Of a stretch of 64,000 nucleotides of DNA, positions 1 through 62,520 are shown one piece after another; position 1 is the first letter of the stretch; every line of letters starts with the position of its first letter. The DNA comes from Psammoneis japonica. Its lineage: Eukaryota. Under the pieces are notes generated by a model, which was not told the DNA's origin, searched no databases, and worked only from the letters and a program-made list of their open reading frames with translations. The DNA lies in contig QPGO01000013.1 in NCBI GenBank assembly GCA_008632985.1, positions 372,001 to 436,000 on the forward strand. Reading direction: 5' to 3'. Made by a program: the position numbers and the translations under genes.

Positions 1-3000
1 CTGCCTTGTGGTGTGTCGACAACTCAGATGATCCTGCATCTTTGCTGCTGCTGCCAAAGTTGAACAGAAACAAGACCATTGAGCGTCCAGATAAAATGAC
101 AAAATGACAGCAAGTGCAAAGAATGCCTGCAGACCTTGTGACAACTCTCTGCATTGCCTCCCAAAAGTTCTCTTCTGCATCAAGAAGCCAGTGCCATCAA
201 CACACAGATTGAAGCCTGGCTTGACAAACATCAGCATCTTTCAGCTCAGGCAAACATGTGGCCCACATCAAGAGAAGATGCAAGCATGAAGCCCAAGCTT
301 GCTTGAAGTGTTCACTCTTGTGACTGCAGCTTCATCCTCTCTCATTGCTCTTTTGGGCTTGCTTGCAGCAGTGTTGGGACCCCTTTCTTCACAAGATCTG
401 CTGCCAAAGTGTTTCTCTCTTTGCAGGTTTTGGATTGCAAGATCTTTGCAGTGTTGCTTTTGTCTGAAAAATGTTGTTTCTCTTGCTCAGAGTTGAAATT
501 TGCTGAACAACAAGTGTGCATTCTTGTCAAGTGCTCCTTGTCTGTGAGTGAACATTCTTCAACACTTGTTCCCTCAAGCAAAGCAGGAAATGACACTCAG
601 AATAATTTGGTCTTGTGAAGCCTGTGATTTTGATGAGAAGAATGGTGCACTTGTTCAGAACCTCATGACAATTGATGAGGTGTCATCAATGATCATCAAC
701 GGAGCATGTGAAGCAGGAAATGACACTCACTGAATTTCTTTGTGTGTGAGCACAAGAACAACTCTTGACAAGTGTTCATTCAGATGGCTCCCTTCTGCTC
801 ACACATTGCAGCCAATGTCATGGTTGTTCATTGTCAATTTTTGTGTGGTTTTTACAATCAGATGACAGTTGTGGACCACATTTTAGAGCATCACTGTGCT
901 GTTGGCAATTGACGCATGCTCTGATGGCATTGCTCTGCCACATGGCTTTTCCCATTTGTTGCCTTTTTCTTTGATTCTTTGCACTTCTTGCTCTTGCCTC
1001 AGTCTCTCTCTCTCTTTTTCTCTCCTTTTGGTGTTGCTTCTTGGCCAATGTGGCTTCTTTTTGTGTTCATGGCACAGTGTGCTTGACCAGCTGACCAGCC
1101 CCTTTCTGCATCTTGACATCAGCAACAGTGTTTCTGGCAAGAAAAGTGCAAAAAGGTGGTCAGCTTTGCCCTCACAATTTTGCCAGCAAGGGACAATGTT
1201 GTTGTTCTGACTCACCTGTGTTCAGCATTTTCTTTTGCTTTTGACAGCTGTCAGGTGCTTTCTTGTCAATTTGTCCTGAGTGCAAGAAAGAAAGCAATGA
1301 CCCAAGCATGAGTTTGAATGGCTTTTGCTGTTGCCGCCCATCTTGTGTGCTGCTGCTGTGCATCTCACCTCTTTTGTGCTTGTTCTTTGTTTTGGTGGCA
1401 CCATGTTGGCGGCTTTCTGTCATTTCCTTTCTGCCATTTTTTGTCCTTGTTGTTCACATTGACCAGCTGTGCATTGTTTTGTGTGCCATTGATGATCTCT
1501 TTTCACAGGTCCTGCCTTTCTCACCAAACTGGCTGGCCTTTCTCTCCATGGTTGCATCAATTTTCAGCAGATTTTTGTTTTGCAATCCTTTTCTCATGTG
1601 TGTTTTGATGTTTTCAATGATTTGAATCAACTTCAACAAATCACAAATTTTTTTTCTGCATTGTTGTTGACACAACTGAGTTCTTGTCAAGAACAAAATT
1701 TTCATGTTTGAGTGGTGCTGTGAGACCAAAATTTAAAGTTTTTGAATCTGATTCTGCAACTTGTTTTTCAAAATGGGACCCACATCTCACAACTGTCTGC
1801 ATTTCCGTTGCATTCATTGTTGTCTCATCATGGCACATCAAGGTCAGAGACATGGGCACAGGCCCACAGGGACAATGGGGAGGAGGTGGTTGAGGAGCTG
1901 CTTGAGGAGGTGGGCAACAAGAGTGGGGAAGAGGTGTGGGAAAGGATTGTGGGAAGGAGGTCAGCAGGGGGGAGGTGGCAGAGGTGGGCAAGCAATTTCT
2001 CCCAGACACAGCCCCCACAGGCATGAGGAGTCTTTGGCTGGTGCTGCTGCTGCAGCAGATGCCAATGATGACTCCATTGCTGACAGTGTTCATTCTGCAG
2101 CAGTTGGAGATTTTTGTTTCTAGATGAACAGCATTTGCTGCAATCACTCAAGTCCCAGGGGCTCAGCGAAGCCTCCCAGCATCATGCAGTGCACTCTCTT
2201 GATCTGCATTCTTTAGATTTGGAACCACTGCACATGTGGTGCACTCTTGCCCACCAGATGCATGCTGTGGTGAAAAAGCAGCAGGACTGCCAGCACAAGG
2301 AAATGCTGTCCAAGCACAAATCCCTCAAGCAAAAGCAAGCTTGCCAGTGCCAATGCTGCAACAGTGTCCAGCCTCCCTTCAGAAAGTCCAGAAGCAGACC
2401 GTCTGGGCACCAGCGAAGTGATCAGCATGGAGCGAGAGCTTGTCAAAACAGCAACCAAGTCAAGAAGGGTTGCATGAAAGCTTCTTTTTGACACTGGATT
2501 TCTGTCAAAGTAAGAGGTTGGAAACTGCTTGAACTGCCAACCACGGCTTGAAGCTGGGGTCACAGCTGAATCTCCATTCGCACACATGGTTTGGGACATT
2601 TCATTGCCAGACAAGAACAATCAATGCAACACACCTGCCATTTGTGCCAGCTTGTGGGAGAAGATTGGCCCATCTTCTTTGTGTGTGATGAACCAAGAAC
2701 ATGACACTTTTGCATCTTTTGTACAAACTCAAGTCAAGTGTGTGCTTTCCCCAACATCTGGTGTTGAGTTGTGTCATCAAGCCCTCAATGCTCTTTCTCC
2801 ACATTCTGAGCTTCAATTGGCAACAATGCTGGTGATGATTTGTGTCAGGAAGCTCCTGAAAGAGTGTCACTGTCCCATGAAGAACAAAGTGTGGTTGCAC
2901 ACTGTTGCAAAGGAGAAATCTTTGTGTGGCTTGTCACTTCAGATGCAGGTGTCAATCAACTTGGATGTCAACATTCCTTCCTCTCACTGTGGCCATCTGG

Positions 3001-6000
3001 TTTGTGTTGCACTCACAGGACATTGAAGGATTGTGACACTTGTTTGATGGGGCCATTGACAGCTGGGGGGCACTCACACACCAGTTGACTTGTGTGAAGC
3101 ATCTTCTCACATGCCTTTTTGCAGATTATCACAATGATTTGATTTGATTGAGTCACTCTCTTGCCTTGAAGATTGCCCTCCAGCATCTGATGATGTTCAA
3201 AATGAAATGGAGGCACTCAATGAAGGATGTGGTCTGTTTCATGAAGTGTCACAACATCGTTGTTTTGTCTGACAGGGTGTTGGATGGAACCCTCAACAAC
3301 CCTGGGGTTCAGGGCACTGGCTTGGCTTTCATTGTTCAACTGCCTTGTCTGACCAACCCACCACTGCAGCTGCCACTGGAGGAGCAGATGCACCAGTGGC
3401 CCGGCCATGGACATTCCCACCCACTGCACCTGCTCTTGACTTCCTGTTTTGTCTGCAGGAGGAAAGGGGGGGGGGGCAACAGCAACCTGCTTTCTGATGG
3501 ACCAATGGATTTCCCCAGAGACAAGAATGCAGATGAAGCCCAGGATGATGATGCCATGAAAACTGCAGACACAATGACAACACCAAAGACAATGACAATG
3601 ACAAGAAGGAGGATGGGAGCAATCATGCAGAAGCTGTTTGAGCAACATTTGAGCTGCAGTGCCAAGCACACAACACTTTGCAACTCACAAAACTGTGCTT
3701 TGGACAACAACAATGCCAAAGACAATGATTGCAACAAGGAGGACATGCCAAATCCTGCAGAAGCTGTTTCAGCGAAATTCAAACCACAATGCCAAAGGCA
3801 CGCAACAGGTTGCAACTTTTGCAACTGCTCTCAACTTGTGAAACAGCACCTTTTGCAGATTCCCACATTGATGCTTCTCAAACAACTTTCTTGGACATCT
3901 CTCTGAAATCTTGTGATGGCTCCATCCCATCCAGTGTTTTGTGCAGATCAACACAAACAACGAAGATCATGTCTGCCATTTCTGTTGTTTTGCACCAGCA
4001 GGTTGCTGACATCTCCAATTTGTGATGAAGAGATGAGGTTTCTCATTGCACTTTCTGTGAGCCTCATTTTGGCTGCATGCACCATTGGCAGATTCTTCTT
4101 TGTGCACCAAGCTGGGAAAAGATGATGTTGTTTGTTGCTGTTTTGCACCTTTTTGTTCACTCGGGCAAGGGCATGATGGTCTTTGCATGCATGCTTGCCT
4201 GCTGGCACAGCTTGTTCAAATGAGTCAAGCATGTGCCAACATGGGCTGCTCCATGAGGAAACAAACCAGCATGAACACAAGACATGGTTTTTGAAATTTC
4301 CAGCTGTGGCCATGGCATTCTTCTGTGTGTCAAATGCAGCAGCTCCTCTCTGTTGCTGCATTCAATGATGCCCCATCTGAAGCTTTGGAGGCTGCACTTG
4401 ATGTTGATTCACACAATGGCAGGACCATCAGTGCAGAGTGGCAGAAATTGTTTGTCGTGAGCCATTTTTGTTTGAGCTTGTGTGCATCAATCGCGACAGG
4501 CATTTTGACTTTGTTGATGCTTGTTTTGGCAAACTGATGTCACCCTCTCAGCCTCCAGAAATGGTGTGTCTTTGCAATGTTCCAGTGTCTTTGGACAAGT
4601 GTAGCCTCCCATGCTTGAAAAGGTCCAACTGCCGATGAAGCAGGAGTTTCAAATGCCTTCTTTGCGGCCAGCTGGGTTTGTTGTGACACACCTCAGATTT
4701 TGGGAGGAGATGGCAAATCCAACAATCTGCCAGCAGACCCACCAATGAATCTTTCCAGCAACAACATCACACAGGTTGACAGCACATGGAACACTGTGTG
4801 GTGGCATCAGCAGCAAGGAGACGAGTCGTCATTGCTGACCTTGGGAAAGCCACGTCCACAAAAATGTGGGAATGTGCTCGCAAATGGGTTTCAGTAATTT
4901 TTGGCACCTTTGAGTGCTTTTGGATCCCCTTGTCCTGTCTGGAAGGAGGGTGCATGGCTGGGTTGCTTTCTCCCTTTGTCATGGCAGTCAAATTGGACAC
5001 CTGGAACCTCTTTGAACTCAATTTTCTCATGTTTGGGTGTCCTGGAAGGCCTGTCAACCAGCATCAGCAAGCTCAATGGGACCCGCTTTGCCAAACAATG
5101 CACTCAAACAAATGCTGTCCTCCTGACACAAGGACTGTCAACCAGGAGGATGTGTTCAGTGCATGAAACCAGCCACAGTTCAAGCCATTCCTGCCACAGC
5201 TGTGCTGGAAGCATTGGCGAATGGTGTGCTTGATGCCAAAGCCAGTCCTGAAGACATCATGTGGAAGGTTGACAGGACAGCATGCAAGAGCCAAGATTGC
5301 TCCACTCTGGATGACAACATTTTAAATCTTCTCTGGCCATTGGTGCTGAAGATGAAACAAAAGCTGGCTGAATCAAAAAACTTGACAGACGAGTCCAATG
5401 TGAAGCACATCAAAGTCATGCTTTGTTTCAATGCTGGAAAAATGACAAATGAGCTGAGCACCCCCTTTGTCCAAGCCCACAGCAGGAACAAAACATCCCC
5501 AAGAACAACCCTTGTTGCAATGACAACAAGTGGGTTTGTTCTGTGCTGGTTGAGTTGACACTGACAACAACTCAAGTTGGGCATTTGCAAGACCAGATGA
5601 CAACAACATTTGCCTGCAACAGCAGCACTGCTGACATCCTCAGAAGTGTGCAGATTCTCAGTTGGCAATGACACAATCAAAGATGAAAATGATGGAGCAT
5701 TTGAGTTGCTGAGCAAATTGCAACCACAGTTGGCCACTTCTGCACACTTTGGTTGTGCTTGCATCTTTTGCTTCTCTGCTGTTGTTGCAGCACACAAGTG
5801 CACTCACTGTGGTGTGCATGTGGCATGGCAGTTTGTGCCAGCATTGTTGCGTTGGTGCACTTTGGCCAGAAAACTGTGGCCTCAAAACAGATTTTGCTTC
5901 AACTGTTTGTTTCTTGACAAGAACAGAACAAAAATTTTCTTGCAAAAACTGTCAGTGTAGAGGGCACTTCTGCAACACACTGGAGTTGTTGTTAGATTGT

Positions 6001-6891
6001 AAGCTCACAATGATCTTTCTTGCCCATTGCACAGCAACTCTGAAACCTCCCAGCACAACCAAACCTTCTTTGCACATGCATTTTGATGCCCCCCTTTGCT
6101 GTTTTCAGTGCATTCAAAGGGCCCTTTGATGCTGAAGTCCCAAAGGCAATGCCAGCAAGTCAAAGAAAGAAAGAATTGAAAATGAAATTTGAGCATTGGG
6201 TGCTTTGACAATGAGAGGTGAGCACAGAAGTGCAACAAAACCAGAAGCCTGGAAAGAAATGCACAACTCCAAAGGTGTCATTTTCTGTAAAGCAGCACAA
6301 AGAAGTTGTCCAAACTGCCTGGACAGGGTGCACAAAGGCATTGTCAAAATGCCACAACCCAGAAAATGTGTTGTTGCTGGGCGTGTCTTTGGAGAAAACC
6401 ATCCATTGTCACATTTGCCAGGAACAAAAGGGTGCAATGGCGCACATTTGCCTCCTGACCAGCGTGAGTTGATGACCACCAGATCATGCAATCCAAGTTG
6501 AGTTGTGCCACCCATTGCAGTTTCATGCAGTCAAAAGTCAGCAACTGGGCCAGTGCATCCACTGCCCAGTGTTTTGGACAAAGCAATGCATTCATTGTCC
6601 ATTGGTTGAAAAGCCACCCAATTTCTGACAGCACCTTTCAGAAAACTGCAACAAAGAATGTGCCTGCAATGGCAATTTGTCATGTTGAGGTCCAGATGGT
6701 CTTGTCTGCAACCTGTGTTCTTTGCTGGCTGCTTCAAAAGCATCTTTGGCAAAGCCTCACAAAAACAACCAAAAAGGCACTTGGATTTCCTCATTGTCTC
6801 AACAGAAGAGAAAACAAAGAAACGCACCATGATGCAACTTTGAGAAGTGCAACCCAGATTTAGAGAAGCAGTTGCCAAAGGGACCCACAAC

Positions 6892-6894
<3 letters not shown>

Positions 6895-6924
<30 letters not shown>
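6895..6924 (+). repeat. (CAA)10 microsatellite
   Basis: Ten consecutive CAA units read directly from the sequence. Confidence 0.95.
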
Positions 6925-9900
6925 GAGATGCTTTCCAATGCTTTTCTGAAGATGGTCAAGGAAGGTTTCTGCATGTGTGTGTCAAAAGGAACATTGTTGC
7001 ATCTGACCCCAGCTGTGCCATTTCTTCAATGCTTTTGAAAGCATGCCTTTCATTGCAACCAGGGCTGCAAGCAACAGCCTCAGATGCTCTTGACCAGAAT
7101 GACAGGTCTGGTCTGCAGCTTCATTCTCAAAGGGAGTTCTTGGCATTTTCTGGTCACTTTGTCTGTGGGGGGATGTGTGTGTTGCTGCTCAGAATTGTTT
7201 CTTACACTTGGCCTTGTCAAACAGCTTGGGCAGTTCTTTGAAGGCTGCACTGGGACATTTGCACATGTTGCAATCCCCAGCATTGCAAAAACAATCACAA
7301 CACCAGAACAACAAGGTGTTAGAGACTTTTTGGAGATCAAACAAGGCACGGATCAATTGCATTTGTGGAGACCCAAGTGCAGTGCATGAAGGAGCAGATG
7401 TCCCAAAAGGCTGGTCAAGCCAAGTGCTGCAAAATTCCCTGCAGCTTTCATGAGCAGCAGCAACTTCTCCATGATGCCATTCCTCTGCAGCAACAATGGC
7501 AGCCTTGAACTTGTGCTGGATGTCATTTTTTCCCACCAAATTGCAGCAATGCATTGGATTGTCACCAAGCCGTTGGGGCATGTCACAGCATTGATTTGTT
7601 CAAGATGTGTTGCTGGAGTGAGAGTTGCAATTGCAAGCCATGTCATCATGGCCTTTTGCATCCCCAATGATTGCGCACAAACAAAAATGAAGATGGACAA
7701 GGCCAAGAAAGGGAAGCACAATGGGAAACCAGTCCGCCTCTTAGAAACTTGCAGCAACTCAGTGAACATCTCCCAAAGGGCATTGTGGCAAAACTTTGCA
7801 CAGGTCTCCTGCCAAAGCTTTGATTGTGTCAGTCAGCAGCTCTTCTCTTGTCATTGCCAGTCTTTGGATGGGTGGAACCACTCCAAGTGCAGACCAAGGG
7901 AAGTGGTGACTTTGGTGGCACTTGTCACTGAGATTGCCAAAAAAGTCAGAAAAATGGGTTGAGCTTGCAGACAACCAATGAAGATGTTGCAGGACAAATG
8001 AAATGAGAGCCAGAGGGACACTCATTGCCAAGTTGTGAGAGAGGCAATTGGAGATCCTCCTTGGCTTGTTTTCACCAGATGCTGGTGTTCAGGGAATTGC
8101 ACACGCACTTGTTGGCTTGAGGACATCATTTCTCTTTGTGCAACCTTTGGCATGATTGCACAACTTTGGGATTGCAGAACACCCTTCTGACACAGTGCAC
8201 AAAGGAAAAATGATGAGCATGCATGGGGGGAACTCAGGTCCAATGTGGACAGCAGAGTGCATGGGCTCAGGGCCAACATGCTTGACATGCTTTGCTTTCA
8301 TGCATCTCACAGTGCAGTGGAGTGAGACAAACAGTTGCAGTCACAATCACGACTGCCCTTGGCTCATCTGGCTAAAGACACCAGACCCTTGTGTGAACCA
8401 TGGGGCAGATGATGCTTCTTCATCATGAGAGTCAAATCTTCTTCTGTGTTTTGCAAACAAGAGGTGGTGTCAAAAGTTGAGCTTCTCCCATCTCCCCTGA
8501 ATCAAGTGCTTCAAAATGGTGAAGACCACCATCATCTTTGTTGGTGCTGCTTGCATTGCTTTGCATGGAAGAGCCCCCAGGGAAGGACGCTGATCCAAAC
8601 AAGTGCATCATTAAAAAAGATGTCACCCCCCAAAGAATGAAAAAACTGATTTGCTCCACATTGTGCAAAAGTTGAGTGCAGGATTCAAAGTTAAAGCAAA
8701 AATCATTGCCAGGTTCATCACAGGTGCAGTGGCCATGATGAACAAATGAAGCATCCAAAGAGGATCAGATGGAAAAGAACAATTCAACAGTGTGACAGAA
8801 ACATCCAATTTAATCCAGAGAAGCCAATGCAATGGAAGTGCTCAAGGAGAGGCAGGTGCATTGTTTTGGGGCCAATTTGAGAAAAGGAAAAGTGCTGGGG
8901 ACACCGTAAAAAAAGCCAATGAAGGGCATGTTGATCATCATTGTCTGGCACACAACCAGGACACAGTGGATTGCAACAGGAGCAGGCCATCATTGTTAAA
9001 ACAAATGTGCCATTAACACAAACTCATTGGCAGCCAACAGAAATGAGTGCTGTGAGATGAAACAAAGAGATGGACAAAGCAGGAACATGCAAAACGGAGA
9101 TGCGCTCAGCTGTCAAATGGCCTGGCTCACAAAAAATCAATCAACCATGGACAAGATTAAAAAGAAAGCCACCAGTGTGCACCAATCTACAAGATTGTCT
9201 GTTGTCACAGCAACCATGACTGCTGTGTGACAAAAACAAAGACAGATTTGCACCATTGTTTAGAAGGTTGTTTGTGACACCAACTCAAGTCAATTGTTGA
9301 CAAATTGTGCAACCACATCATCACAAATGTGACCATTGTTGAGATCAAAAAGAACTCACAGGCATTTGTCTCTTGGGGGTGCTGACTTTGCTGTTGTTGT
9401 GACTGCATTGGTGTGGCAAAACATTTGACTTCTCACACATGATGCACACATCATGGGTCATGCAGAGTGTTGACAAATGCACAAACAATGAACAACTTCT
9501 GTGGCACTGCTGCACACCCTGAAGCAGCTCCAAAATTGCTGCTGACTTTTCAGCATTTTGACTCTACAACATCTCCACATTTTTGCACAGGTGTGTGTGT
9601 TTGAAGTCATGAAGCCAAAAAAGGCCACACAGTTGAGCTGGGTGCAGGCAACAAAGACAATGCATTGTTGCAAAAAAAGGAAATAATCTTGTTGTTGTGT
9701 GTGCTGCAATCTCTCAAAGCACCGCACTGTGCTGGTGATCAAAAACAGGGTTTGTCTGATGACAGCTTTGCTGGTCATCGCAGCACCAACAATGTTGTCA
9801 GCTGAGCAAGCTTGGTCTGATGACCCAAGTGCCTTCCAAGACCCCTTCACCATTGTGCAGATTTTTGGACTCTTCTTGGTGCCAACTGAAACTCCTTTGA

Positions 9901-9999
9901 AAGAGTTCGTTGTTGTCTCTTTGATGCTCTCAGGGCTGCAAAGTTGGCTGTGAGTGTTCATCCATTGACCATTGGGACATTCTTTTCCTTGTGTGTTGA

Positions 10000-10170
10000 A
10001 GCCAAGATTTGAGTTTCCAAAATCTTTCCTTTGCACCTGCTGCTGCTTCCTGACCCATCTTGGCAGCAACTTTGCATGCTGCATTGCCTCTCAGCACCTC
10101 TTGAGGTTGTCAGTTTCAAACCACAGCTCTGTTCTCAGTGGCACACAAAGTGGTGAAAGCCAGCTTGCAC
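10000..10170. repeat. Dispersed repeat, copy 1 (second copy at about 17195-17360)
   Basis: Shared core ttcctttgcacctgc..ctgcttcctgacccatcttggcagc.ac.ttgcatgctgc; minus-strand translations LPRWVRKQQQVQRKDFG and LPRWVRKQWQVQRKVFG. Confidence 0.85.
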
Positions 10171-10866
10171 ACCATGCTCCCAGCTTCTTTTTTTTGGATT
10201 TGGTTGCCCCTCAGTTGTGGGTTGTTGTTGCTTCTGCTTTTGGGTTGCTTGCTTCCCAAACATTTTGAGGCTGCCGCTTTGTTTGGATTCGCCACTTGGC
10301 CATGAGTCCTTTGTGTTCAGCCACAATGCAGCTGAATGCGGGGCAGAAAAGAATGTAATTCAAGGGCGGCGCATCTGTCCCATCTTTTGTGGGCACTTGT
10401 TGTTTCTCCAAGACACGCACTGGCGGGCCAGCAAGGCACTTGCACCAGTGCGTGTTACCTTCGGCAGGCAATTACTTCTGTGTGAATGCAGAGGTCACTC
10501 TCTACAATTTGCCGAGATGCGGAGGATATGAGAGCTCTCACAATGTGCAGTACATACCGCTTCGTTCTGTTGTGGCTTCCTTAACCAACAGTTTGTATCA
10601 CGGAATAAAAAGCTAAAGTCCAACACTTCAAAAATCAAACGTGGGTAGCACAAGAGGCAATTGCCTTAGATCCCATATTGTCGAGCTGCCTTTGTAACTT
10701 TTCCTCAGCAATTCACAGACTTGCTTTCCACATATAGGCTCAAGCAATTAGAAACACTAGAGGCTTCCTTAAAGGAAACCTATACGACCTCTACTGGTAG
10801 GCATGAGAACAGACGTCGCATCAGCATTAATAAATTTGTAGGCTGGCGATTTGGCCATTCTAAGTA

Positions 10867-47947: not shown

Positions 47948-48337
47948 GACGCGTTCCAGCCCTAGGTGGGACTCCGTGTGACATTGGGCCCGTAGAATTC
48001 TACGTGCGAGCTCCGTAGTACGAGAATTTAATTAATGGATATATTTATCTTCAACATCAAATAAACGGCCAAGTTTGTGGTACAATTATGCCTCTTACCA
48101 CTCGACGTTGTTGCAAATGCGCCTGCCCTACGCGATTCTTAAGACATTATAGAATCGCGCTGTAACAAAAAATGTCAAAAGTTGTTGGACGGATCGCTCA
48201 ATAAGTGTACCGTAAAATGACACAAAATATCGAAAAAATCACGTAGAAATCTACGTGCGCGACATACGACGTGATTCAAAAAACTATCGATGTCACAGTT
48301 CAGCAGCACGAGGTCCCACCTAGACCTGGAACGCGTC
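47948..48337. mobile_element. MITE, 390 bp, ~31-bp TIRs, inserted in a poly-G tract
   Basis: GACGCGTTCCAGCCCTAGGTGGGACTCCGTG ... CACGAGGTCCCACCTAGACCTGGAACGCGTC; G7 on the left and G9 on the right; normal TA and CG content. Confidence 0.9.
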
Positions 48338-53100: not shown

Positions 53101-54640
53101 AAAGACATTGAACCCCGGCAAGTGTGCCTCAGCACCTCTGATGGACACGCACATTGTGGCCATTGAGGACATGGCCAAGGGCCAAGGTGTCAAAGAATTC
53201 AAGTTTGCAGGAAAGTGTGGAGGCAATCTGTGCATTGCTGATTGGACTGCAGGAGTGGACAACAATGAAACTGAGAGGAACAGAGATGACTGCAGTGCAG
53301 CAAACAAAAATGATGATGCATGCTGCACAACTGAGTCAGAGAACAAAGACCATGAAGATGAGCCCAACTCAGACAATCAATGCAAGGAGGCCAATGAGAC
53401 ACTGGCCAATGAAAGGTCCAGTTCTGGCCAACAGCACAAAGCTCAAGAGGAGCAAGAGGTCCAAGAAGACCCAGAAAACAATGACCAAGAGTGAAGAGTC
53501 CAAAACAGACAAAGAACCTCAAACCTCAACAAGGCCCAAGTTAGGAAAGTGAACAAATGAAGGAAGAAGCAAATGCTGTGCCTGGAAGAGTTGCAAGAGC
53601 AGGGACATCCTTCAACGTGACATCACAGAGACATGAAGAAAAGAAAGTTTGCTTTGCAGGAGTGGCAGATGCCAGAAAGATGGCAAAGGAGTGACGCAAG
53701 CTCAAGCACTGCCATCATTTGCATGCCAACATGAGCCTCAATCTGAAAGATGATTTGAAACATGAAGTGGAAACAGCAATGGTGATTGCACACTTGACGT
53801 GTGAGATCAATGACCAACTCTGCAGTGAAGAGGGCATTGTGAGTTTACCCAACAATGTCCACTCCACAAAGGCCTCAAAGCATTCAGCCAGAAGGGGCAT
53901 GAAATGATTGCACAACTGAGTGTGCTTTGCACCAGTGTCAGCAAAGGATGTGACTCTGACTGAGAGGACCAACAGGGTTGGAACAAAATTGTCAGATGAG
54001 AAGGCTCAGACCCTCCACTTGTGGGTGGCCAAGGGACCATTTGTGCCCAAGAGAGGCCAAATGGACACACACATCCCACTGCTGCCACATCATGCACACA
54101 TGCAAGAGCTCCCACCAACAAGGATTGGAGGAAGCCATCAAATGCATGAACCAGATGAGAAACAAAGTTGCTGCATTGAGCACAAAGGACCTCCAAGTTG
54201 TCCTCAAGTGGTGTGCGGACGCATCACATTTGCAGTGCATCCCAATTTCAAGAGCCATGCTGGAGGAGTTGTGACAATGGGCAATGGAGCACAGAAGCTG
54301 AGCTTGTTGGAGTTGATGATGCCACAACCATGATGCTGTGGACGAAGTTGTTTGTGGAACACCAAGGGCATTGTCCAATCAACAAGAGTGCCCCACAACA
54401 GGACAACAAGAGCACCATCCTGCTGGAGACCAGTGGGCACAAGAGTGCCGGCAAGTGGTCACAAGCACTCAACATTTGGCACTTCTTTGTTGCTGATCAG
54501 ATCAAGAGGGGCAACTTGCACACACAGCATTGTCCTGTGGACGACATGCTTGGAGACTTCACAACTGAGCTGTTGCAAGGCAAGAAGTTCTAAAAGTTTA
54601 AACAAGCCATTGTGGGCTGTTAACTCCAAGCAGGACAGGC
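50147..54640 (+). mobile_element. Ty1/Copia (CoDi-like) retrotransposon, hypermutated, RT largely deleted
   Basis: gag GRGGRG...KKVIDHTQKEC; knuckle CHCCGESNHKSPDC; integrase IECDPEF...PEVEQSIQTVKE; RNase H QDNKSTILLE...ALNIWHFFVADQI...HCPVDDMLGDF...LQGKKF. LTRs not resolved. Confidence 0.9.
52235..52628. mobile_element. MITE-like insertion, 394 bp, at a TTAA site
   Basis: TTAA|GGGGGGTC ... GACCACCC|TTAA; removing it restores the Copia frame ASFKIDFIECDPEF; normal TA and CG content. Confidence 0.9.
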
Positions 54641-54699
54641 GTGAAACCTGTTCTTTGTGACATCAGACAAGAACTCGGATCCACGTGGGTGAAAGATCC

Positions 54700-56130
54700 C
54701 TGACAGATGCAACATTCAGTGCAAATGTGAGGTGAGGAGAGCCTCAAGACCCCACATTAATTGCGTGAAGAAACAATGACAATGAAAAAGGGAACCACTC
54801 ATGAAGAGTGTGTGTGACCACCCAAGCACTGCATTGTGTGGGCCAATCAAAGATGGATGGCCTTGTGATTGTTGGCTGTGGTTTCTTGATTTGATGGAGC
54901 CACCAAGATTGGCAATGACCTGAGGCACCAAGTGACCCAAACGAGTGCCTGATCAATCTCCAAGCAGCAGCAACAAGTTTCATTGCAGTGAGGGATGAAC
55001 TCATGAGATGGCTGGTGAGCAACTGGACATTGCCAACCAGCAACTCATTCAAAAGATGGGTGACAGCTGATTTGCATCAACTGATGATCAAAGCAGATGA
55101 GAGGAACAATGTGGCTGGACTGATGCCATGAGATGGCTGATGTTGAGAAACTGCTGCCAGTGTGGTGGGTGGAGCTGTCGAGGCAAAACCATTTTGATGG
55201 GAAGAAATTGCATGAGAGTGCCATGGAGGATTGGACTTGCAGTCAGCTGAGGCACATGACCACTGCCACACCAATGTTCTCCATGCACAATGATGACATC
55301 ATCATGAGTGACATGAAGCCACATGGAATGAATGTGCACCAGACCAGAGAGTGCTGGTGAATGTCGGCCTTGATGCCAAGCTGCGGGGCAAGACATGTTG
55401 CCAAAACTGCAGCAAGAATGACAAGTGTGAGAAGAGTGTGCCAGATCACCAACACATTGCCGGATCACCCCAGAATGGGAGAAATCTTCAACTTGCAATG
55501 GACAGGTGAGACATTCTCACACCAAACAACAAATCAAGAGTCGACTGTCCCACACGTGGCATTGGCAACTGAGGGGCATGTGGTGGCTCACTTGGAATGC
55601 TCAGTTTGAAGGACAACAATGAGAACAGCAAGGTTTGCTCCTGTGGACCAGCTCAAGACAAGAATGGAGACGTCTTCAATGTGTGCCAGTTGGCGCAATT
55701 TTTCGATTGTGACATCAATGAGGCAAGAAAGGTTCCACACAATGTGGGCTTGTCAGAACATGGGGTTCTTTGCAGCAGATCCTGGAGTGGTGTCAATGGT
55801 TGGATCATGGACCAGTTGGGCAGTTCACATGAGAGGAGCTTGGCAGAATGTAGTCACTGCACCTGCATTTGCCAAGTTGTGGAATGTGGGTGTGCACAAG
55901 ACATCGCTGGCGCACTCAACGATGTGCTGGATTTTCTTGCCAACAAAGGGCATTGTGCCAGCTGAAGGTTTGCCAAAGCACAAGATGATGGCGACGACCG
56001 AGTGGATTGGGCCAGCAAGTTTGTTGCAGAGATTCCTAATGGGATTGCTCCAGCACATGAGGAACAAGCATTCCAAACATAAACAACAACATGTTGTTTT
56101 AGTTTCTGACATCATCTTGGGGGTCTCTCG
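54700..56130. repeat. Hypermutated unclassified repeat-derived DNA
   Basis: TpA/CpG-depleted; broken plus-strand reading frames with no family recognised. Confidence 0.55.
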
Positions 56131-58403: not shown

Positions 58404-59549
58404 CGCAAATTATCTGCCCTGCTACTTGGTCACGCCGATCCAAGTAGGCAATTAGACATGTACATATTTGAGTTTTAATCTACAATATAAAATATTCGAA
58501 AACATTCTCTAGAGAGTAGGTACTCTCTACTAGAGGTAGAGAGAGTTATGCAGTACGTACTATCGCTACGGTAAGACGACACCACAATGTCAAGAAATGT
58601 TGGTCGAGCAAAAAGCATGCTGGACCCGCCAGAAGAAGGCGAGAATCAATCAAGAGCCAGTCGACAGGGAAGCCACGAACAGATGTGTACGGAATTGCAA
58701 ACCTTTCATAAGGACCGTCACAGTGTGTCGCCTGGTTTTGAGCTTCCAAAAAGGTGACAGACAAGCGGATCTCCCCAATGCACATGCATCATGGAAAGTG
58801 CAGGCCAAGGCTCAGCGTGCCATTGCACAGCATCAACTTAGAGCAAGGATGGCGTCTGAATGGGTGTGTTATGATCAAAGCCTCGACTTGAACAAGAACA
58901 CAGCCAAGAAGAATGGGATGAGATGGAGGCACAAATCACAGCAATTGGCCACAAAGTGCCAGTGGTCCTTGTTGCCATGTCTCAAGATGGCACAATGCTT
59001 GAGGGTCTTCCGGGTGCAGAAGAATCCAAACTGTCAATTTGATGCAGATGTTTTGAGCACTGTGGCTTGAAACATGCATCATTCCACACACTGTGTGTGT
59101 TTGTCAGCAGCCAGCTGCACGGCACAAGTGCACTCTCTTCTTGTGCAAGTTTTTCATTTGTCATTGGATGTCTTGTTCTTCCTGCCTGACAGGCAGCTGC
59201 AGATTTGTGCAGCATTTCATCCACACTCAGCACATGCATTTCTTGTGTCTGCCCTTGCCATGTGCCGACAAATTGCACAAAGAGATTGTCCTTGAACAAA
59301 TGGCAGTGCGAAGTTGCCCCCAATGATTTCCGCCTTGGTTTCATGCACTTGTGGTTTCTGGCATCCAAACAATCATGTCTTTGCAGGGCACAAGGTGTCA
59401 TTGTTGGTGGTGCTTGGTGTTCTTGAGTGTGCTTGCTTGATGCACCTTCCTCCAAGGACTGCGCAAGCACTGCAACAAGATTGACACTGTGCCCCCTCTG
59501 CGTGACCTTCTTGTTTCTGCATTGGAGACATGGCTTCATGGTGAAATGA

Positions 59550-60060
59550 TGCATGTTGCAGAAGTGCCGCCAATGTTCTGCTCATTGTGGCAGGCTCAGA
59601 ACAACATTGGATGGAAACAGATCTTCAATGGCCAATTCTCCTCACCATGGAACAATTTCTAAGAAATGCACTTGTGCAAATCAGGTTTGCCAGAGCAACG
59701 CCGCAAAGACAACCGCCCACCCCCTGTGTGGGCCATTCAGATGGGGTCACACATGTGGAGGTCATGGTGGGAACTGTGGGAATGACACAACAAACATGTT
59801 CATGGACACGACGTAGATTCACAGAAATCTGCACAAAGAAGACAGGCAGAGGCTGAACTGACAGCATTTACAACAAGAAACAAGGCTGTCTTGTGAAGGA
59901 CAGAGCAGACCTCATGGAGTCATTGGAGGATCACATGGCACATGGTGCCTCGCAGATTGTGAATTGGGTGGCAATGATTGAGCCCCACCTCAAAGCCAGC
60001 ATCAAAGAAGCAAGGCATCTGGTGCTTCGCAGCACACGTTCCATTGTCAGTTGTTTTGGA
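59550..60060 (+). mobile_element. Non-LTR retrotransposon (LINE-like) ORF2 3' remnant
   Basis: AQNNIGWKQIFNGQFS and WWELWE*HNKHVHG resemble the Q..IGW..G and W..RN...H motifs of LINE ORF2 C-termini. Confidence 0.6.
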
Positions 60061-60129
60061 AGCCTGGCCAGTCCTTGCACCTCTTCTGCCACACTGGTTC
60101 AGTGCATTGGAAGTGTGGGTTAGCCAGTG

Positions 60130-62520
60130 CCAGCACAGCTGGCAAAGGAGTGACAGCACTTAAAAAACAGATCTGTTTTTTTGGTGTGCTTGCTGGTGCT
60201 TTTGAGTTTCCAACAAGCACAGCCATTTATGTTGTTGGCAATGACATCATGGTTGGCCTGCTTGGATGGACAAATGAGGCATTGTGATGACCCAAAAAGA
60301 GAAAAGCTGGACAATGTTCAGCTGGCATTTCTTGTTGCACTGTCAGACACTGCAGCAACAGGGGTCTTTTCAGTGCCAGCTTGATGCTGCACATGCCTTC
60401 CAGCTGCCACTGAGTTTTCATGAGTTCTCCAAGAAGCAGCTCAGCAGTGATGCCTGTCATTTTTGTCTTGTCCATCAGCTGATCAAAGTTGACTCTCATG
60501 TGTTTCTGTGGATCCTTTCTCTTGTGGTGCACACTGCATGCAATGTCACAGATCTTGCTCAATCTAGACAAAACTTAATCAAAGGATGCAGTGGGGAAGA
60601 TCGTTTCAGAAAACACACTCAGATGGACATCATCATGGCATTCTCTGGCTTCTTCTACAGCTGCAAGAGTGGAGCAGCATTGAGGCATTTTGCCATCCCC
60701 CCACTGGTGGCAACTCAAGTCAACAAGGAAATGAGCTTGCTGCTCTTGCTTTTGAAGCTGGGCTTTTCACAACCAAATGCAGGAGGTTGCTTCTTGTGTG
60801 CCACATGAGACACAAGGCTTTTTTTGCCCACTCATGTCTGCACAAAACAGCATCTTTTTCAACACATTGCACAGAATGTTTGCTTGTGCAGGAAAGGAAA
60901 GTGTTCAATCAGTGGAGGGCTCAGGCTGTCCAGGATCAACTGGTGCAGCACAACAGCTTCTGGAAGAGAGAAGTGACGACATCATCTTTGTCAACAAGTG
61001 TGCCGTCAACATCCTTTTTTCTTTGCAATGTGCTGAAGCACCTCCCAGCTTTGTTTGGGGTGCTCTGCTGAGTGTGCTGTTCAAGAATTGCAGACACATT
61101 TGACCTTGTTGTCCACATTTTGAGATCTCTTTTGTCTTTGGGGTTTTGGACAGACTGAAGTTTTGCACACTTGGCAGAGACTTCTCCACCTGCTCTTTGG
61201 AGGAATTCTTCAGCCAGCTGCTGGCTGAATGACATTGTGCAAATTTTGGAATTGCACTGAAAAAGTTGTCAATCTGCACATTTGGGGATTTTTGTGCTGA
61301 ACACTGGACAGACTTGATGTCCTTTTGCATGCATGAAAATTGCGCTGGCAAAACTCCCCAACACACTGACAAGCAGACTTTTTTCAGCCAGCAGCTGGCT
61401 GGAGATGGTGCCCCCCATCTTCACACACTTAAAAAGTGCAGCTCTGTCATCTGCACTGCACTGCATTGGAGCCAAACATGCAAGTGTCTGAAGCTCTGTG
61501 TGGCATGTGACACCTGAGCTTGCAGGATGAGCTTGAGTCCTTTGAAGCCAAGTCACAAAATGGCCTGCTTGCTTTCTCATCACAGGTGCAAGGAGATCTC
61601 TGGCACAACTGGGTGAGCAATTTCCAATGAAGTGGCGCCCACAATGTTGCTCAGATGATTTGACAGAGAGGTCAATGACTCTGCTGCATCTTCTGATTCT
61701 TGATGCTTTTGCTTCTTCTTTGTCAGTTGACCAGAAGATTTGTGAAGAGAAAAGTCTTCTGTTGACAGACCACTTGTCTCAGCTCTGGCAACTTTTCTGG
61801 ATTGACCCTCTTGGGGTGCTTCCATGTTGTCTGATGAAGAGCAGCACAGGTCAGCAGAGGCACTTTTTGTTGTGGGCTCAATCTGATGGTGTGTCTGGCC
61901 GGGGGCACTGGCTCTGCTGCTGCTGCTGCTGCTGTGCTCTGCAGGCCCGCAGGCACAGGAGACAACAGCAGGAGGGGAGGATGCAGACAACCAAAAGACT
62001 TGGTGGTCTCTGCTTTGTCATTCACCAGCTGCCTTCTTGCCCCAAACCAAGCTTCCCTGACATCTCAGATCACTTGCTTGTCATGGGCGCACAAGCGCAA
62101 ACGGCTTTCCACATCCTTTCTCAGCCTCTGCCAAAACAACTGTGACAACAGCAGTGCTGCAAATCAAACTCACCTTGAGTTGTTTGCACAATTCTGCAAT
62201 CTTTCTTTCACAAAAATGGCTGCATGCATTGACAAGGGACGCTTGGTCAATGTGTGCACTGCCTTGGCAAAAAGCAAAGCATCGTCCTCGCTTGGGGGAG
62301 CTTTGTTGCCTTGCATTTTTTTGCTGTTGTGTGTGTTTGACCACCCAGCATGAATGTTTGTCTGGGGGCAACTCCATCCACACTGCCATTTTCATTGCAT
62401 TGGTCAATGAATGTCTGCACTCTGGCATGTGCTTTGGTCAGAGAGACCTTTGCAACCTTCCCTTCTCTGGTGGATGGCAGTCAGACATGGAGAACGAAAA
62501 TGTGTGAGAAGTTGGCATGT
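60130..62520. repeat. Hypermutated unclassified repeat-derived DNA
   Basis: TpA/CpG-depleted; no family recognised. Confidence 0.55.

Follow-up and report, generated by a model that had tools for sequence, protein, structure and literature searches.

Erasure of TpA from repeated DNA of the diatom Psammoneis japonica by conversion to TpG and CpA: a candidate repeat-directed hypermutation process

Organization of the window

The analysis covered one 64-kb window of Psammoneis japonica DNA (the whole stretch analysed), in which six repeat blocks (41,999 bp) were compared with gene DNA (20,100 bp). The following features were distinguished; strand is given where one was assigned, and dinucleotide values are observed/expected ratios (o/e).

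1..10200: old repeat block free of TA and CG; 33 TA (o/e 0.044), 49 CG (o/e 0.091), TG 1.84, CA 1.87
12401..14400: least-decayed TA-poor block, CpG mostly retained; TA o/e 0.146, CG o/e 0.777
14401..17000: old TA-free repeat block; TA o/e 0.039, CG o/e 0.213
17201..31400: single-copy gene DNA, the control with normal TpA and CpG; per kb, TA o/e 0.5-0.7 and CG ~1.0
33393..45463, plus strand: old Ty3/Gypsy element, split by a nested 7.1-kb insertion (37471-44608)
33393..33751, plus strand: probable Gypsy 5' LTR, 74% identical to 45075-45463
45075..45463, plus strand: probable Gypsy 3' LTR, from the same LTR-pair comparison
35549..36232, plus strand: Gypsy reverse-transcriptase (RT) ORF P0001, free of Tyr
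39729..44560, plus strand: younger Copia-like LTR element with LTRs and target-site duplication, TA-poor and CpG-retaining; TA o/e 0.096, CG 0.587
39729..39913, plus strand: Copia-like 5' LTR, starts TG and ends CA
44374..44560, plus strand: Copia-like 3' LTR, starts TG and ends CA
45343..46676: very high-copy repeat; summed contig depth 20,287-44,280
47963..48321: island of normal TpA and CpG within repeats, which may be unique DNA or a recent insertion; 27 TA in ~360 bp, next TA at 48494, dense CG at 47908-48337
48401..52200: old TA-free repeat block; TA o/e 0.029, CG 0.133
52232..52701: second island of normal TpA and CpG; 22 TA, whereas the flanks 52000-52231 and 52702-53200 have none
52801..56000: old TA-free repeat block with a Copia-type C-terminal motif at 54477; TA o/e 0.035, CG 0.181
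58801..62600: old TA-free repeat block; TA o/e 0.051, CG 0.159

The gene DNA at 17201..31400 matched the Pfam families Filamin, Pkinase, Ank, FHA and DiatomPyrShell (E 1.9e-59). The 64 stop-free ORFs of at least 80 aa in block 1..10200 gave no convincing Pfam family, block 52801..56000 had no Pfam match, and the very high-copy repeat had no Rfam or tRNA match. An inverted repeat (12154-12284 and 14147-14279, 87.6% identity) has arms that differ at TA versus TG sites. Transposon identity was confirmed by homology or structure for the Gypsy and one LTR element only, and repeat status by read depth covers 28001-48000.

In the Ty3/Gypsy element, tblastn with the ORFs of relatives located gag at 33997-34617 and pol at 35003-37538 and 44158-45102. 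Pfam RT_RNaseH was matched at 36277-36618 (E 5.6e-9), and a match to rve at 37087-37452 (E 9.3e-5) lay under the curated cut-off. Two contig joints are present in other copies, one from 37471 to 44608 and one from 45217 to 33543, the latter connecting both LTRs. TA o/e values for the element were 0.055 and 0.044, and CG o/e values 0.14 and 0.22. A 5-bp target-site duplication, AGGAG, flanks the Copia-like element on both sides, and its 3' LTR is preceded by a purine tract. Inside the element, 41004-41267 resembles Pfam SH3_retrovirus (E 6.7e-6), with 26.4 bits where the cut-off is 27, and no RT was recognisable within 39729..44560. The altered motifs named in the original prediction were found in the sequence: HATSLDLNMGCCHV from 35996, WGKHEH at 36083 and HVDD at 36194 in the Gypsy element, and the Copia motifs FLGC at 41055 and WHFF, where RYFF had been expected, at 42191, 47222 and 54477.

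Composition of repeat and gene DNA

The TpA o/e was 0.05 in the repeat blocks and 0.57 in gene DNA. Gene DNA holds 797 TA in 20,100 bp; at that density the blocks would contain ~1,665, but they hold 155. CpG was also depleted, with 583 CG and an o/e of 0.24 against 1.00 in gene DNA. This agrees with the prediction that transposon blocks are poor in both dinucleotides, and the hand counts on which it had been based were exact (1 TA and 1 CG in 35701-36000; 13 TA and 20 CG in 19501-19800). The products were over-represented in repeats, with TG at 1.81 (genes, 1.17) and CA at 1.83 (genes, 1.15), and their combined gain approximately equals the combined loss of TA and CG. For the remaining 12 dinucleotides the repeat-gene difference was at most 0.17; AA was 1.17 in both, AG and TT were nearly unchanged, and the GC content was 47.8% in repeats and 47.3% in genes.

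All 11 tabulated sub-blocks had a TA o/e of 0.03-0.15, and the edges of the TA-free zones were sharp to within ~100-200 bp. Two blocks are poor in TA with much CpG left, 12401-14400 (TA 0.15, CG 0.78) and 39729-44560 (TA 0.10, CG 0.59). TpA loss and CpG loss are therefore separable, as had been proposed.

Read depth and accuracy of the sequence

Summed contig depth was 59-61 over 28001-31335 and 103-44,280 from 31336 onward, and the TA-free zone begins at ~31,480-31,600. Where depth was readable (28001-48000), the conversion is limited to repeated DNA and has sharp edges, in line with the expected restriction to repeats. Run X1 is an accurate read set from the same sample as the assembly. One of its contigs, 11,434 bp long and at depth 59, aligns to 28001-31448 over 3,448 bases without a difference, and its contigs match four transposon stretches with 0-1 differences at depth 63-75, single-copy DNA being at 59. 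Since these contigs reproduce the TA-free sequence at single-copy depth, a base-calling artefact, against which the original prediction was to be checked, is unlikely; the equal depth also implies that reads from the two strands do not disagree. In repeats X1 splits into contigs of ~500 bp, which the window spans, suggesting that two technologies agree. The TA-free sequence is real.

A 226-nt contig of a further run (X2) aligned to 46308-46533 with 14 differences, 12 of them listed. This contig is a phased paralogous copy of the very high-copy repeat 45343..46676; at 7 sites it keeps TA, and at 2 sites CG, the window reading TG or CA there.

Direction and timing of the changes

At 195 conserved codons, 63 differences were found, of which 25 were TA>TG or TA>CA and 13 were CG>TG or CG>CA; the rest comprised 9 other transitions, 8 transversions and 8 multi-step changes. 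The polarised changes thus do contain the excess at TpA. Both strands were affected, with 15 TA>TG and 10 TA>CA events in random order (13 runs, ~13 expected). A 5' T preceded 15 of the 18 inferred A>G changes, including 9 of 11 at first codon positions, and a 3' A followed all 10 inferred T>C changes. Outside TpA and CpG, 3 A:T>G:C changes stood against 6 G:C>A:T changes.

The consequences for coding capacity are visible in the Gypsy pol. The RT ORF P0001 has 0 Tyr, 11 His and 11 Cys in 228 aa, whereas the median Tyr content among its 150 best relatives is 3.6%, and 143 of these 150 have a normal Tyr content. The closest relative, P0155 (63% identity), has 8 Tyr, at which the window reads C, F, N, H, H, C, C and H. 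The catalytic Tyr of the RT is now His (HVDD, CAT GTT GAT GAC), and stops and frameshifts are present in the window copies. Only 1 of 11 conserved Gypsy pol Tyr codons is kept, 6 having become Cys and 4 His, against 68 of 75 retained in five CpG-poor relatives (Fisher p 5.5e-8). These five (CG o/e 0.12-0.33) also keep TA at 0.59-0.88, and TA o/e was 0.56-1.06 in 80 of the 80 environmental relatives fetched. Comparison with related sequences thus indicates that TpA loss is not a family trait of these elements, and the objection that intact copies might be equally TA-free and Tyr-free did not hold. TpA-bearing ancestors preceded the transposon copies of the window. The LTR doublets described below and the Tyr>His/Cys pattern also occur in database proteins from other assemblies (7/150 and 3/35).

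The two LTRs of the Copia-like element were compared over 189 aligned columns, of which 21 were mismatched. The mismatches form 7 TG<->CA doublets, 1 TA<->TG, 2 CG<->TG/CA, 3 other transitions and 1 transversion. The expected number of doublets was 0.45, and none of 20,000 simulations reached 7. As 3 CG are retained in both LTRs and 2 in one, CG origin explains, by arithmetic, well under one doublet. The probable Gypsy LTR pair had 18 doublets in 365 aligned columns (3.9 expected; 18 reached in 0 of 20,000 simulations). Since such doublets lie between the LTRs of single insertions, the change was made on DNA after LTR synthesis. The conversion follows the synthesis of an element's two LTRs, most simply after integration, and it acts on each copy independently and on both strands.

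Sequence context and age grading

In the repeats, TAT and TAC survive at 2-6% of their density in genes, and TAA and TAG at 12-19%. No ATAT, ATAC or GTAT survives of ~320 expected, while survival is 0.51 for TTAA and 0.14 for CTAG, against 0-0.03 for RTAY. The conversion prefers 5'-TAY-3', which is 5'-RTA-3' on the other strand. This preference predicts the observed product bias, YTGY+RCAR outnumbering YCAY+RTGR by 2961 to 2014 in repeats (812 to 673 in genes).

Survival of RTAY, of sites with one favourable strand and of YTAR, relative to gene DNA, was 0.05, 0.23 and 0.43 at a CG o/e of 0.78 (block 12401..14400), 0, 0.17 and 0.30 at 0.59, and 0.003, 0.03 and 0.20 at ~0.15. About 75-85% of TA is removed with 60-80% of CpG still present, and removal then goes near completion. 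An additive two-strand rate model under-predicts the RTAY loss in the Copia-like element (by arithmetic, ~4.8 expected, 0 seen).

Grading with age is as compatible with repeated bursts as with an ongoing process, and it would also be expected from biased repair or from a mark of slow mutagenicity.

Proposed mechanism and alternatives

Our leading explanation, which we hold tentatively, is that the repeats undergo TpA->TpG/CpA hypermutation at the DNA level by a repeat-directed enzyme, most likely an adenine deaminase, beside 5mC deamination. An enzyme directed to repeats would convert one base of TpA in DNA, giving an A:T to G:C transition at either pair of the palindromic step, with ordinary 5mC deamination at CpG in parallel. 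Most probably it would be a deaminase: hypoxanthine made from adenine would be read as G at the next copying. It might recognise repeats by homology, as in RIP, or by their methylated or heterochromatic state. By stripping the elements of all Tyr codons and of TAA and TAG stops, the process would inactivate them, as RIP does in fungi. In preferring T on the 5' side of its target and a pyrimidine on the 3' side, such an enzyme would resemble the tRNA deaminases TadA/ADAT2; we know of no natural adenine deaminase that acts on genomic DNA. As TpA is its own complement, an attack on A and an attack on T look alike in sequence, and the chemistry given here is what we infer from the patterns of change. 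Every testable part of the original prediction is supported. New here are the change after LTR synthesis, the 5'-TAY-3' preference and biased T:G mismatch repair as an added rival.

Two other explanations deserve weight. A maintained mutagenic modification on TpA in repeats may mispair now and then, so that TpA decays to CpA or TpG faster than methylated CpG; we consider this possible, at clearly lower probability than the deaminase. Candidates are a modified adenine, a base-J-like derivative of thymine, or T oxidised to 5-hydroxymethyl- or 5-formyl-uracil. Like CpG, TpA is its own complement, which would make a mark on it maintainable, the loss is age-graded and context-dependent, the sharp edges resemble those of a chromatin or methylation domain, and the two strands are affected about equally. 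Base J and 5hmU in other protists also occur preferentially at T before A, and in repeats. However, with most TA lost while 60-80% of CpG is left, such a mark must be several-fold more mutagenic than 5mC, and the hydroxymethyluracil literature searched with diatoms concerned, by title, other organisms, mostly dinoflagellates. Ranking a little lower is a biased T:G repair, in which a glycosylase or endonuclease, recruited to methylated repeats to undo 5mC deamination, would fix replication-error T:G at TpA to C:G without regard to strand. The explanation proposed for CTAG depletion in enterobacteria, through very-short-patch repair, follows this reasoning. This accounts for TpA changes that are only A:T>G:C transitions (10/10 T>C and 15/18 A>G lie in TpA), and strong T:G>C:G repair would explain why CpG outlasts TpA in younger elements. 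The excess rate needed is ~100-fold over background, by arithmetic from 4 non-YR differences in 189 LTR columns and ~90% TA loss, an order of magnitude within reach of mismatch-repair escape. Against it, neither the changes outside TpA and CpG nor the GC content reveal a general A:T>G:C drive, CTAG is among the more resistant contexts, and the five CpG-decayed relatives keep TpA, so the conversion is not a general companion of CpG methylation.

The remaining explanations are far weaker. If repeats recruited a Pol eta-type polymerase for error-prone repair synthesis (WA>WG), the direction would fit, TA being the preferred hotspot of Pol eta and A>G its commonest error, but we regard this explanation as unlikely. 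Of the three candidates in the original prediction it fits worst because AA is untouched; AG and TT hardly shift either, transversions are few (8/63 polarised changes, 1 of the 21 mismatched Copia-like LTR columns), and bringing one dinucleotide near saturation would take an implausible number of repair patches. Editing of retrotransposon RNA or single-stranded cDNA (ADAR-, ADAT- or APOBEC-like) in each round of retrotransposition, with copies born mutated, is very improbable. RNA editing typically changes A to G where U precedes, and patterns differ among copies, but the LTRs of one insertion come from the same template and differ by 7 and 18 doublets, which contradicts it; moreover, both strands are affected, and non-coding repeats and the very high-copy short repeat are converted too. 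We give equally little credence to a sequencing or assembly artefact, with modified bases in repeats being called as transitions. No platform is recorded for run X1, which shares its sample with the assembly, yet X1 reproduces the sequence, a misread symmetric mark would give conflicting strand calls instead of clean TG or CA, and the pattern recurs in other assemblies. Least credible of all are families intrinsically poor in TpA and CpG, for instance through selection against UpA and CpG in RNA, as is common in RNA viruses. This is contradicted by the 80 relative loci and the 143 homologues with normal Tyr; the lost catalytic Tyr, the stops and frameshifts, and LTR doublets that mark mutation within single insertions also speak against it.

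Comparison with known systems

A literature search on TpA-erasing repeat hypermutation found no description, and a repeat-directed process that erases TpA seems not to have been described before. The depletion of CTAG in enterobacteria is attributed to very-short-patch (Vsr) T:G repair. It likewise turns TA into CA or TG, is tied to cytosine-methylation repair and leaves over-represented products, but it is genome-wide, mild and confined to CTAG, whereas here all repeat TpA is affected, RTAY most, with ~95% loss. APOBEC3 and ADAR, too, are deaminases whose hypermutation of retroelements leaves dead copies behind in genomes; their editing acts on RNA or single-stranded cDNA, before integration and on one strand, while here LTR pairs differ and both strands are affected. 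TadA/ADAT2 and the TadA-derived adenine base editors target A after T/U and before a pyrimidine, comparable to the TAY and TAR survival found here. The natural enzymes, in contrast, act on the tRNA anticodon loop and, to our knowledge, activity on DNA is known only from laboratory evolution. Base J and 5-hydroxymethyluracil of kinetoplastids and dinoflagellates arise when enzymes modify T, with a preference for T followed by A and for repetitive DNA; we know of no case in which they erase TpA from repeats, and a search of literature titles found no report of them in diatoms. The decay of methylated CpG by 5mC deamination affects the same blocks, gives the same TG and CA products at a palindromic YpR step and accounts for 13 of the 63 changes. 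It cannot touch TpA, however, which is lost faster than CpG here and is kept by CpG-decayed relatives elsewhere.

The closest parallel is RIP in ascomycete fungi, where point mutations likewise arise only in repeats, at the DNA level in copies that are already resident, near saturation in one dinucleotide context, in each copy independently and with destruction of reading frames. RIP differs in its lineage and in making C:G>T:A changes, mostly at CpA, which create TpA, whereas the diatom repeats undergo A:T>G:C changes at TpA, which destroy it. The RIP indices of the window repeats were 0.063 for TpA/ApT and 1.96 for (CpA+TpG)/(ApC+GpT), against RIP thresholds of at least 0.89 and at most 1.03 (PMC7884421). 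Diatom DNMT4 is related to fungal RID and is of unknown function (PMC9998398); the C5-methyltransferase fold of DNMT4/RID would not explain A:T changes. The process in Psammoneis japonica resembles RIP in its logic but acts on the opposite base pair. The elements would be inactivated as by RIP, either by an evolved defence or as a by-product.

TpA depletion in the repeat blocks

The dinucleotide composition of the window confirmed that TpA was lost from the repeats. The six TA-poor repeat blocks (41,999 bp) contained 155 TA and 583 CG dinucleotides, corresponding to observed/expected (o/e) ratios of 0.05 and 0.24, against 797 TA (o/e 0.57) and 1,122 CG (o/e 1.00) in 20,100 bp of gene DNA. The o/e of TG rose from 1.17 in the genes to 1.81 in the repeats and that of CA from 1.15 to 1.83, and the twelve remaining dinucleotides differed by at most 0.17. 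The G+C content was 47.8% in the repeats and 47.3% in the genes, which is expected if the gain from TA>TG/CA changes is offset by the drop from CG>TG/CA changes. All 11 tabulated sub-blocks had a TA o/e of 0.03-0.15, and the boundaries of the TA-poor blocks were sharp. A recount matched exactly the hand counts of the original prediction (1 TA and 1 CG at 35701-36000; 13 TA and 20 CG at 19501-19800), and the altered peptide motifs that it quoted were present at 35996, 36083 and 36194, the last encoded by CAT GTT GAT GAC. Its interpretation, a hypermutation restricted to repeats that turns TpA into TpG or CpA, gained support in every part open to testing.

The stop codons TAA and TAG were almost gone from the repeat blocks, where the remaining stops were TGA only. 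This loss opened long spurious ORFs in all six frames, and 247 of the 337 ORFs of at least 80 aa in the window fell within repeat blocks. Two islands with sharp edges and normal or high TpA and CpG lay within the TA-free DNA, each flanked by at least 170 bp without any TA:

47963-48321: TA/CG-normal island, ~360 bp
52232-52701: TA/CG-normal island, ~470 bp

Each island could be either unique sequence or an insertion of very recent date. The sole ambiguous base of the window was a single N at 49113.

Restriction of the loss to repeats was reflected in copy number within 28001-48000, the part in which depth was read. Summed contig depth was 59-61 over 28001-31335, where TA was normal, and 103-44,280 over 31336-48000, where the loss of TA coincided with the elevated depth.

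Genes and mobile elements of the window

The TA-normal DNA contained the following long ORFs:

28581-29699 (+): pyrenoid shell protein gene, its ORF matching Pfam DiatomPyrShell (E 1.9e-59)
10867-12033 (-): long ORF of 388 aa in the TA-normal region 10401-12400
56388-58403 (+): long ORF of 671 aa in the TA-normal region 56001-58700

Kinase, ankyrin, FHA and filamin domains were also found when 20 long ORFs were scanned with Pfam, and together with DiatomPyrShell these identified the window as diatom nuclear DNA. Neither a Pfam family nor a usable ESM Atlas neighbor was found for the ORFs at 10867-12033 and 56388-58403, which are either genes or young, unmutated mobile elements. A contig from the read set X2, aligned over 30149-31187 (+), omitted 30253-30386 and 30754-30852, both with GT..AG ends. 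Given these spliced joints X2, although recorded as 'DNA?', behaves like a transcriptome; the two introns were thus confirmed, and the expressed gene adjoins the repeat edge.

The repeat blocks contained a Ty3/Gypsy element, assigned by homology, and a Copia-like element nested in it:

33393-33751 and 45075-45463: probable Gypsy LTRs, from self-comparison of the window
33997-34617: Gypsy gag
35003-37538 and 44158-45102: Gypsy pol, with a Pfam RT_RNaseH match and a weak rve match
39729-44560: Copia-like LTR element, 4,832 bp

The target-site duplication of the Gypsy element was not fixed by inspection by eye. Contigs of other copies joined 37471 directly to 44608, showing that the Gypsy element holds a nested insertion of 7.1 kb, inside which the Copia-like element lies. 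The latter had LTRs of 185 and 187 bp with TG...CA ends, was flanked at each end by the target-site duplication AGGAG, and had a purine tract before the 3' LTR. It contained the remnant of a retroviral SH3-like integrase domain (Pfam SH3_retrovirus) and no recognizable reverse transcriptase in its interior, and may therefore be non-autonomous or rearranged. Internal direct repeats of ~74-75% identity were seen in it (43305-43628 vs 43658-43988; 41694-41860 vs 43111-43277), and a run of 18 G at 39611-39628 lay ~100 bp 5' of its 5' LTR.

In total, 244 of the 247 stop-free repeat-block ORFs of at least 80 aa were scanned against Pfam, the three with the N being left out. RT_RNaseH, rve and SH3_retrovirus were the only credible matches; weak matches to TRH, DUF6869, UPF0114, zf-TFIIIC, SRP54_N and Flu_M1 were regarded as chance. 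Since 1-10200, 14401-17000, 48401-56000 and 58801-62600 had no credible match, composition was the sole basis for calling them repeats. Comparing the window with itself yielded 16 short pairs, too few for family consensus sequences. A high-copy repeat reached a summed depth of 20,000-44,000 at 45343-46676 and 47344-48000, against 59 for unique DNA, and contained direct and inverted sub-repeats (45482-45637 vs 46406-46561; 46203-46312 vs 46539-46648). Searches of this repeat with Rfam at the gathering threshold, with Rfam at E<=1 on 45300-46800 and with ARAGORN returned nothing, so the tRNA-like look of 46470-46530, noted by eye, was unsupported. A (TTTG)8 microsatellite was present at 47493-47523, where reads seem to be cut.

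Read support for the TA-free sequence

Contigs of the read set X1 were identical to the window over 28001-31448 (0 differences, word depth 59). Among the 14 of 7,182 X1 pieces listed, four TA-free stretches (32259-32707, 40649-41123, 42276-42812 and 46619-47485) were reproduced with 0-1 substitutions at depths of 63-75. This is single-copy depth, so reads of both DNA strands agree, whereas misreading of a symmetric modification would set the strands at odds. X1 is fragmented into pieces of ~500 bp in the repeats and the window is continuous through them, which suggests that two technologies agree. The X1 contigs thus carried the TA-free sequence rather than TA, although the agreement is not fully independent, as X1 possibly derives from the assembly's own sample and its platform is unrecorded. 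Artefact and intrinsic composition are, even taken together, a very improbable explanation of the loss.

Direction of change in the reverse transcriptase

The reverse-transcriptase ORF of the Gypsy element (P0001; 35549-36232, +) encodes 228 residues, among them 11 His, 11 Cys and no Tyr. A HMMER search with this ORF gave 15,122 relatives at E<=0.001, and the best 150 had a median Tyr content of 3.6%. Alignment of 143 normal relatives to the window by tblastn yielded 195 codons with a majority residue. Conserved Tyr was retained at 1 of 11 of these codons, with 6 changed to Cys and 4 to His, which bears out the proposed destruction of coding capacity. Ile was retained at 3 of 12 (7 to Val) and Arg at 5 of 11 (3 to His and one each to Cys, Trp and Lys). 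Pro (15/16), Gly (13/15) and Phe (9/10) were mostly retained. In the closest relative (P0155, 63% identity) eight Tyr were aligned, of which the window kept none and had His or Cys at six.

The 63 codon differences comprised 15 TA>TG, 10 TA>CA, 5 CG>TG and 8 CG>CA changes, 9 other transitions, 8 transversions and 8 multi-step changes. The polarized spectrum therefore had the A:T>G:C excess at TpA, and both products occurred on the Gypsy sense strand (15 vs 10), in line with the claim that either strand is affected. By manual count, 15 of the 18 A>G changes had a 5' T and all 10 T>C changes a 3' A. Eleven of the A>G changes fell at a first codon position, so that their 5' neighbor belongs to the preceding codon, and 9 of these 11 had the T. 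Along the gene the order of the strands was random, with 13 runs in 25 polarized sites (manual count; ~13 expected), and no strand-coherent patches were detected by this runs test.

The relatives kept both TA and Tyr. Of 575 confirmed environmental relatives of the reverse transcriptase, the best 80 all had a TA o/e of 0.56-1.06, and five of them with a CG o/e of only 0.12-0.33 still had a TA o/e of 0.59-0.88. In the same pipeline these five retained 68 of 75 Tyr and 76 of 90 Ile positions, significantly different from the window (Fisher p = 5.5e-8 and 5e-5, respectively). The 80 TA-normal relatives, including the five CpG-poor ones, ruled out TA loss as a trait of the element family or a general companion of CpG methylation. 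No TA-depleted copy was found among these best 80 of 575 metagenome relatives, a count that is uninformative on rarity elsewhere. Tyr-free relatives with excess His and Cys did occur in the databases, as 7 of 150 and 3 of 35 relatives, reading MGCCH for MGYYH and WGKH for WGKY:

P0010, P0062, P0070, P0076, P0079, P0103, P0138, P0172, P0184, P0189: Tyr-free reverse-transcriptase fragments, predicted proteins (ENA, JGI, Logan)

The Tyr>His/Cys signature is thus already present, unrecognized, in public assemblies and gene calls, and Tyr-free 'proteins' have been deposited.

Independent mutation of paired LTRs

When an LTR element is made, its two LTRs start out identical. The LTR pair of the Copia-like element, whose target-site duplication was verified, differed at 21 of 189 aligned columns, and 14 of these formed seven adjacent TG<->CA doublets. 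The others were one TA<->TG, two CG<->TG/CA, three other transitions and one transversion. Random placement of the transitions gave 0.45 doublets, and none of 20,000 trials reached seven. The Gypsy LTR pair had 18 doublets against 3.9 expected (0 of 20,000 trials), and a third repeat pair (9972-10160 vs 17171-17353) had five against 1.5 (177 of 20,000 trials). Such a doublet arises when a self-complementary ancestor, TA or CG, becomes TG in one copy and CA in the other. In the Copia-like LTRs three CG were kept in both copies and two in one, which by our own arithmetic is a CG loss of ~1/4 per LTR. CG ancestry thus predicts well under one doublet, and the doublets of this pair derive from TA. 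As the LTRs of one insertion were mutated independently, the change acted on double-stranded DNA once the LTRs had been synthesized, the simplest case being an already integrated copy. This excludes editing of retroelement RNA or minus-strand cDNA as the main cause.

Other copies gave the same picture. A single X2 contig differed from the window at 14 sites in 46308-46533, within the very high-copy repeat, and among the 12 listed it had TA at seven where the window has TG (3) or CA (4), and CG at two where the window has TG. X1 contigs at least 80% alike had 1,992 transition and 501 transversion places, and many adjacent TG<->CA pairs were seen among the 40 of ~2,500 differences listed.

Sequence context and timing of the loss

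The loss depended on the base 3' of TpA. Per kb, the repeats and genes had 0.25 and 10.3 TAT, 0.63 and 11.2 TAC, 1.79 and 9.28 TAA, and 1.02 and 8.83 TAG; survival relative to gene density was 2-6% for TAT/TAC and 12-19% for TAA/TAG. At four bases, survival was 0 for ATAT and ATAC/GTAT, 0.026 for GTAC, 0.05-0.12 for sites with one favorable strand, 0.14 for CTAG, 0.26 for CTAA/TTAG and 0.51 for TTAA. The products YTGY+RCAR and YCAY+RTGR numbered 2,961 and 2,014 in the repeats and 812 and 673 in the genes, so that, with the gene baseline subtracted and CpG losses assumed to be evenly split, ~85% of the conversions at one-favorable-strand sites ran in the predicted direction (own arithmetic). 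The motif can be written either as A>G within 5'-TAY-3' or as T>C within 5'-RTA-3' of the opposite strand, two descriptions that sequence alone cannot separate.

Survival of TpA by context in blocks that differ in CpG content

Block: RTAY; one favorable strand; YTAR
12401-14400 (CG o/e 0.78): 0.05; 0.23; 0.43
Copia-like element (CG o/e 0.59): 0; 0.17; 0.30
Pooled old blocks: 0.003; 0.03; 0.20

The loss of TpA precedes that of CpG and then goes on. That the two are separate processes, as originally proposed, follows from the TA-poor blocks that still hold a CG o/e of 0.59-0.78. The Copia-like LTRs had only four differences outside YpR steps, and in the same interval an estimated ~90% of TA and ~25% of CG were converted per LTR. 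By this estimate TpA was converted about a hundred times as fast as the background and several times as fast as methylated CpG decays. Loss so concentrated at the start is compatible with repeated bursts or with context-dependent rates.

Possible mechanisms

Enzymatic conversion of one of the TpA bases is judged to have slightly less than an even chance of being responsible. A more specific version, which we propose tentatively and hold to be possible rather than probable, is a natural DNA adenine deaminase that would recognize 5'-TAY-3', be guided to repeated or silenced DNA and turn TpA into TpG on either strand ('A-RIP'). Adenine deamination was ranked first, with modest confidence, because the preference for a 5' T and a 3' pyrimidine is like that of TadA-type deaminases. 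A mutagenic mark maintained on TpA, such as an oxidized thymine, is a serious rival that we regard as unlikely. Biased mismatch repair by a T:G glycosylase recruited to methylated repeats is another serious rival, of low probability. It would produce only TA>CA or TA>TG, the direction seen in the polarized changes and the LTRs, and it would also account for CpG outlasting TpA; however, outside TpA there was no general A:T>G:C drive (3 vs 6, manual count), and CTAG was comparatively resistant (survival 0.14). Error-prone repair of the Pol eta type (WA>WG), a candidate of the original prediction, was disfavored, as AA was unaffected (o/e 1.17 vs 1.17) and transversions were few (8 of 63 polarized changes).

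Should an adenine deaminase prove responsible, it would edit A to G in DNA naturally, with a defined preference over three bases, and be a counterpart of the laboratory adenine base editors, and the system would be the first genome-defense hypermutation on A:T pairs. A mark or biased repair would instead mean that heterochromatin has a new, context-specific route to mutation. For annotation, insertion ages from LTR divergence will be badly overestimated unless TpA and CpG sites are masked, and few of the mutated domains are recognized by Pfam.

Comparison with known systems

To our knowledge, repeat-directed point mutation as a genome defense is established in fungi only, and as C-to-T only. 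No description of TpA-directed repeat hypermutation, in diatoms or elsewhere, was found in the main texts of the mostly non-subscription articles searched. The process appears to be a new form of repeat-directed point mutation, and would be categorically new if a DNA adenine deaminase proves responsible. A second such system, aimed at the other base pair and found in algae that are ecologically dominant and unrelated to fungi, would show that the strategy evolved more than once with different chemistry.

Like fungal RIP, the process is confined to repeats over the stretch where depth was read, acts at the DNA level, mutates copies independently, uses one dinucleotide context and inactivates its targets. 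RIP is, in addition, premeiotic and depends on cytosine methyltransferase homologues of the RID or DIM-2 type. In contrast to RIP, which causes C:G>T:A changes mainly at CpA and so raises TpA and lowers CpA/TpG, the changes in the window are A:T>G:C at TpA. TpA/ApT was 0.063 in the repeats and 0.643 in the genes, and (CpA+TpG)/(ApC+GpT) was 1.96 and 1.21, so that both indices shift opposite to RIP, for which the thresholds are at least 0.89 and at most 1.03, respectively (PMC7884421). Diatoms have DNMT4 enzymes that are related to the RIP factor RID and of unknown function (PMC9998398). Mutation of A:T pairs is not explained by an enzyme with a cytosine-methyltransferase fold.

Deamination of 5mC probably underlies the CpG decay that runs alongside, judging from the CG o/e of 0.24, the CG>TG/CA changes (13 of 63) and the replacement of Arg by His, Cys and Trp. 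TpA, however, contains no cytosine, and 5mC deamination hence offers no route to its loss. Editing before integration by ADAR, ADAT or APOBEC enzymes predicts LTRs that share their changes and acts on one strand, whereas the LTRs of the window differ by doublets and 15 TA>TG stand beside 10 TA>CA. Pol eta would hit AA as well as TA and give a substantial share of transversions at A; here AA was spared and transversions were few.

VSP repair, proposed to explain the scarcity of CTAG in enterobacteria, is the nearest precedent for repair-driven TA>CA/TG changes. It shares the exclusive direction TA>CA or TA>TG, but it is limited to CTAG as a mimic of the methylation site, and here CTAG survives better than ATAT, ATAC/GTAT and GTAC. 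TadA/ADAT deaminases act on an A that follows T/U and precedes a pyrimidine. The changes in the window follow the same 5' T and 3' pyrimidine preference, a likeness in the way of working that is no proof of membership.
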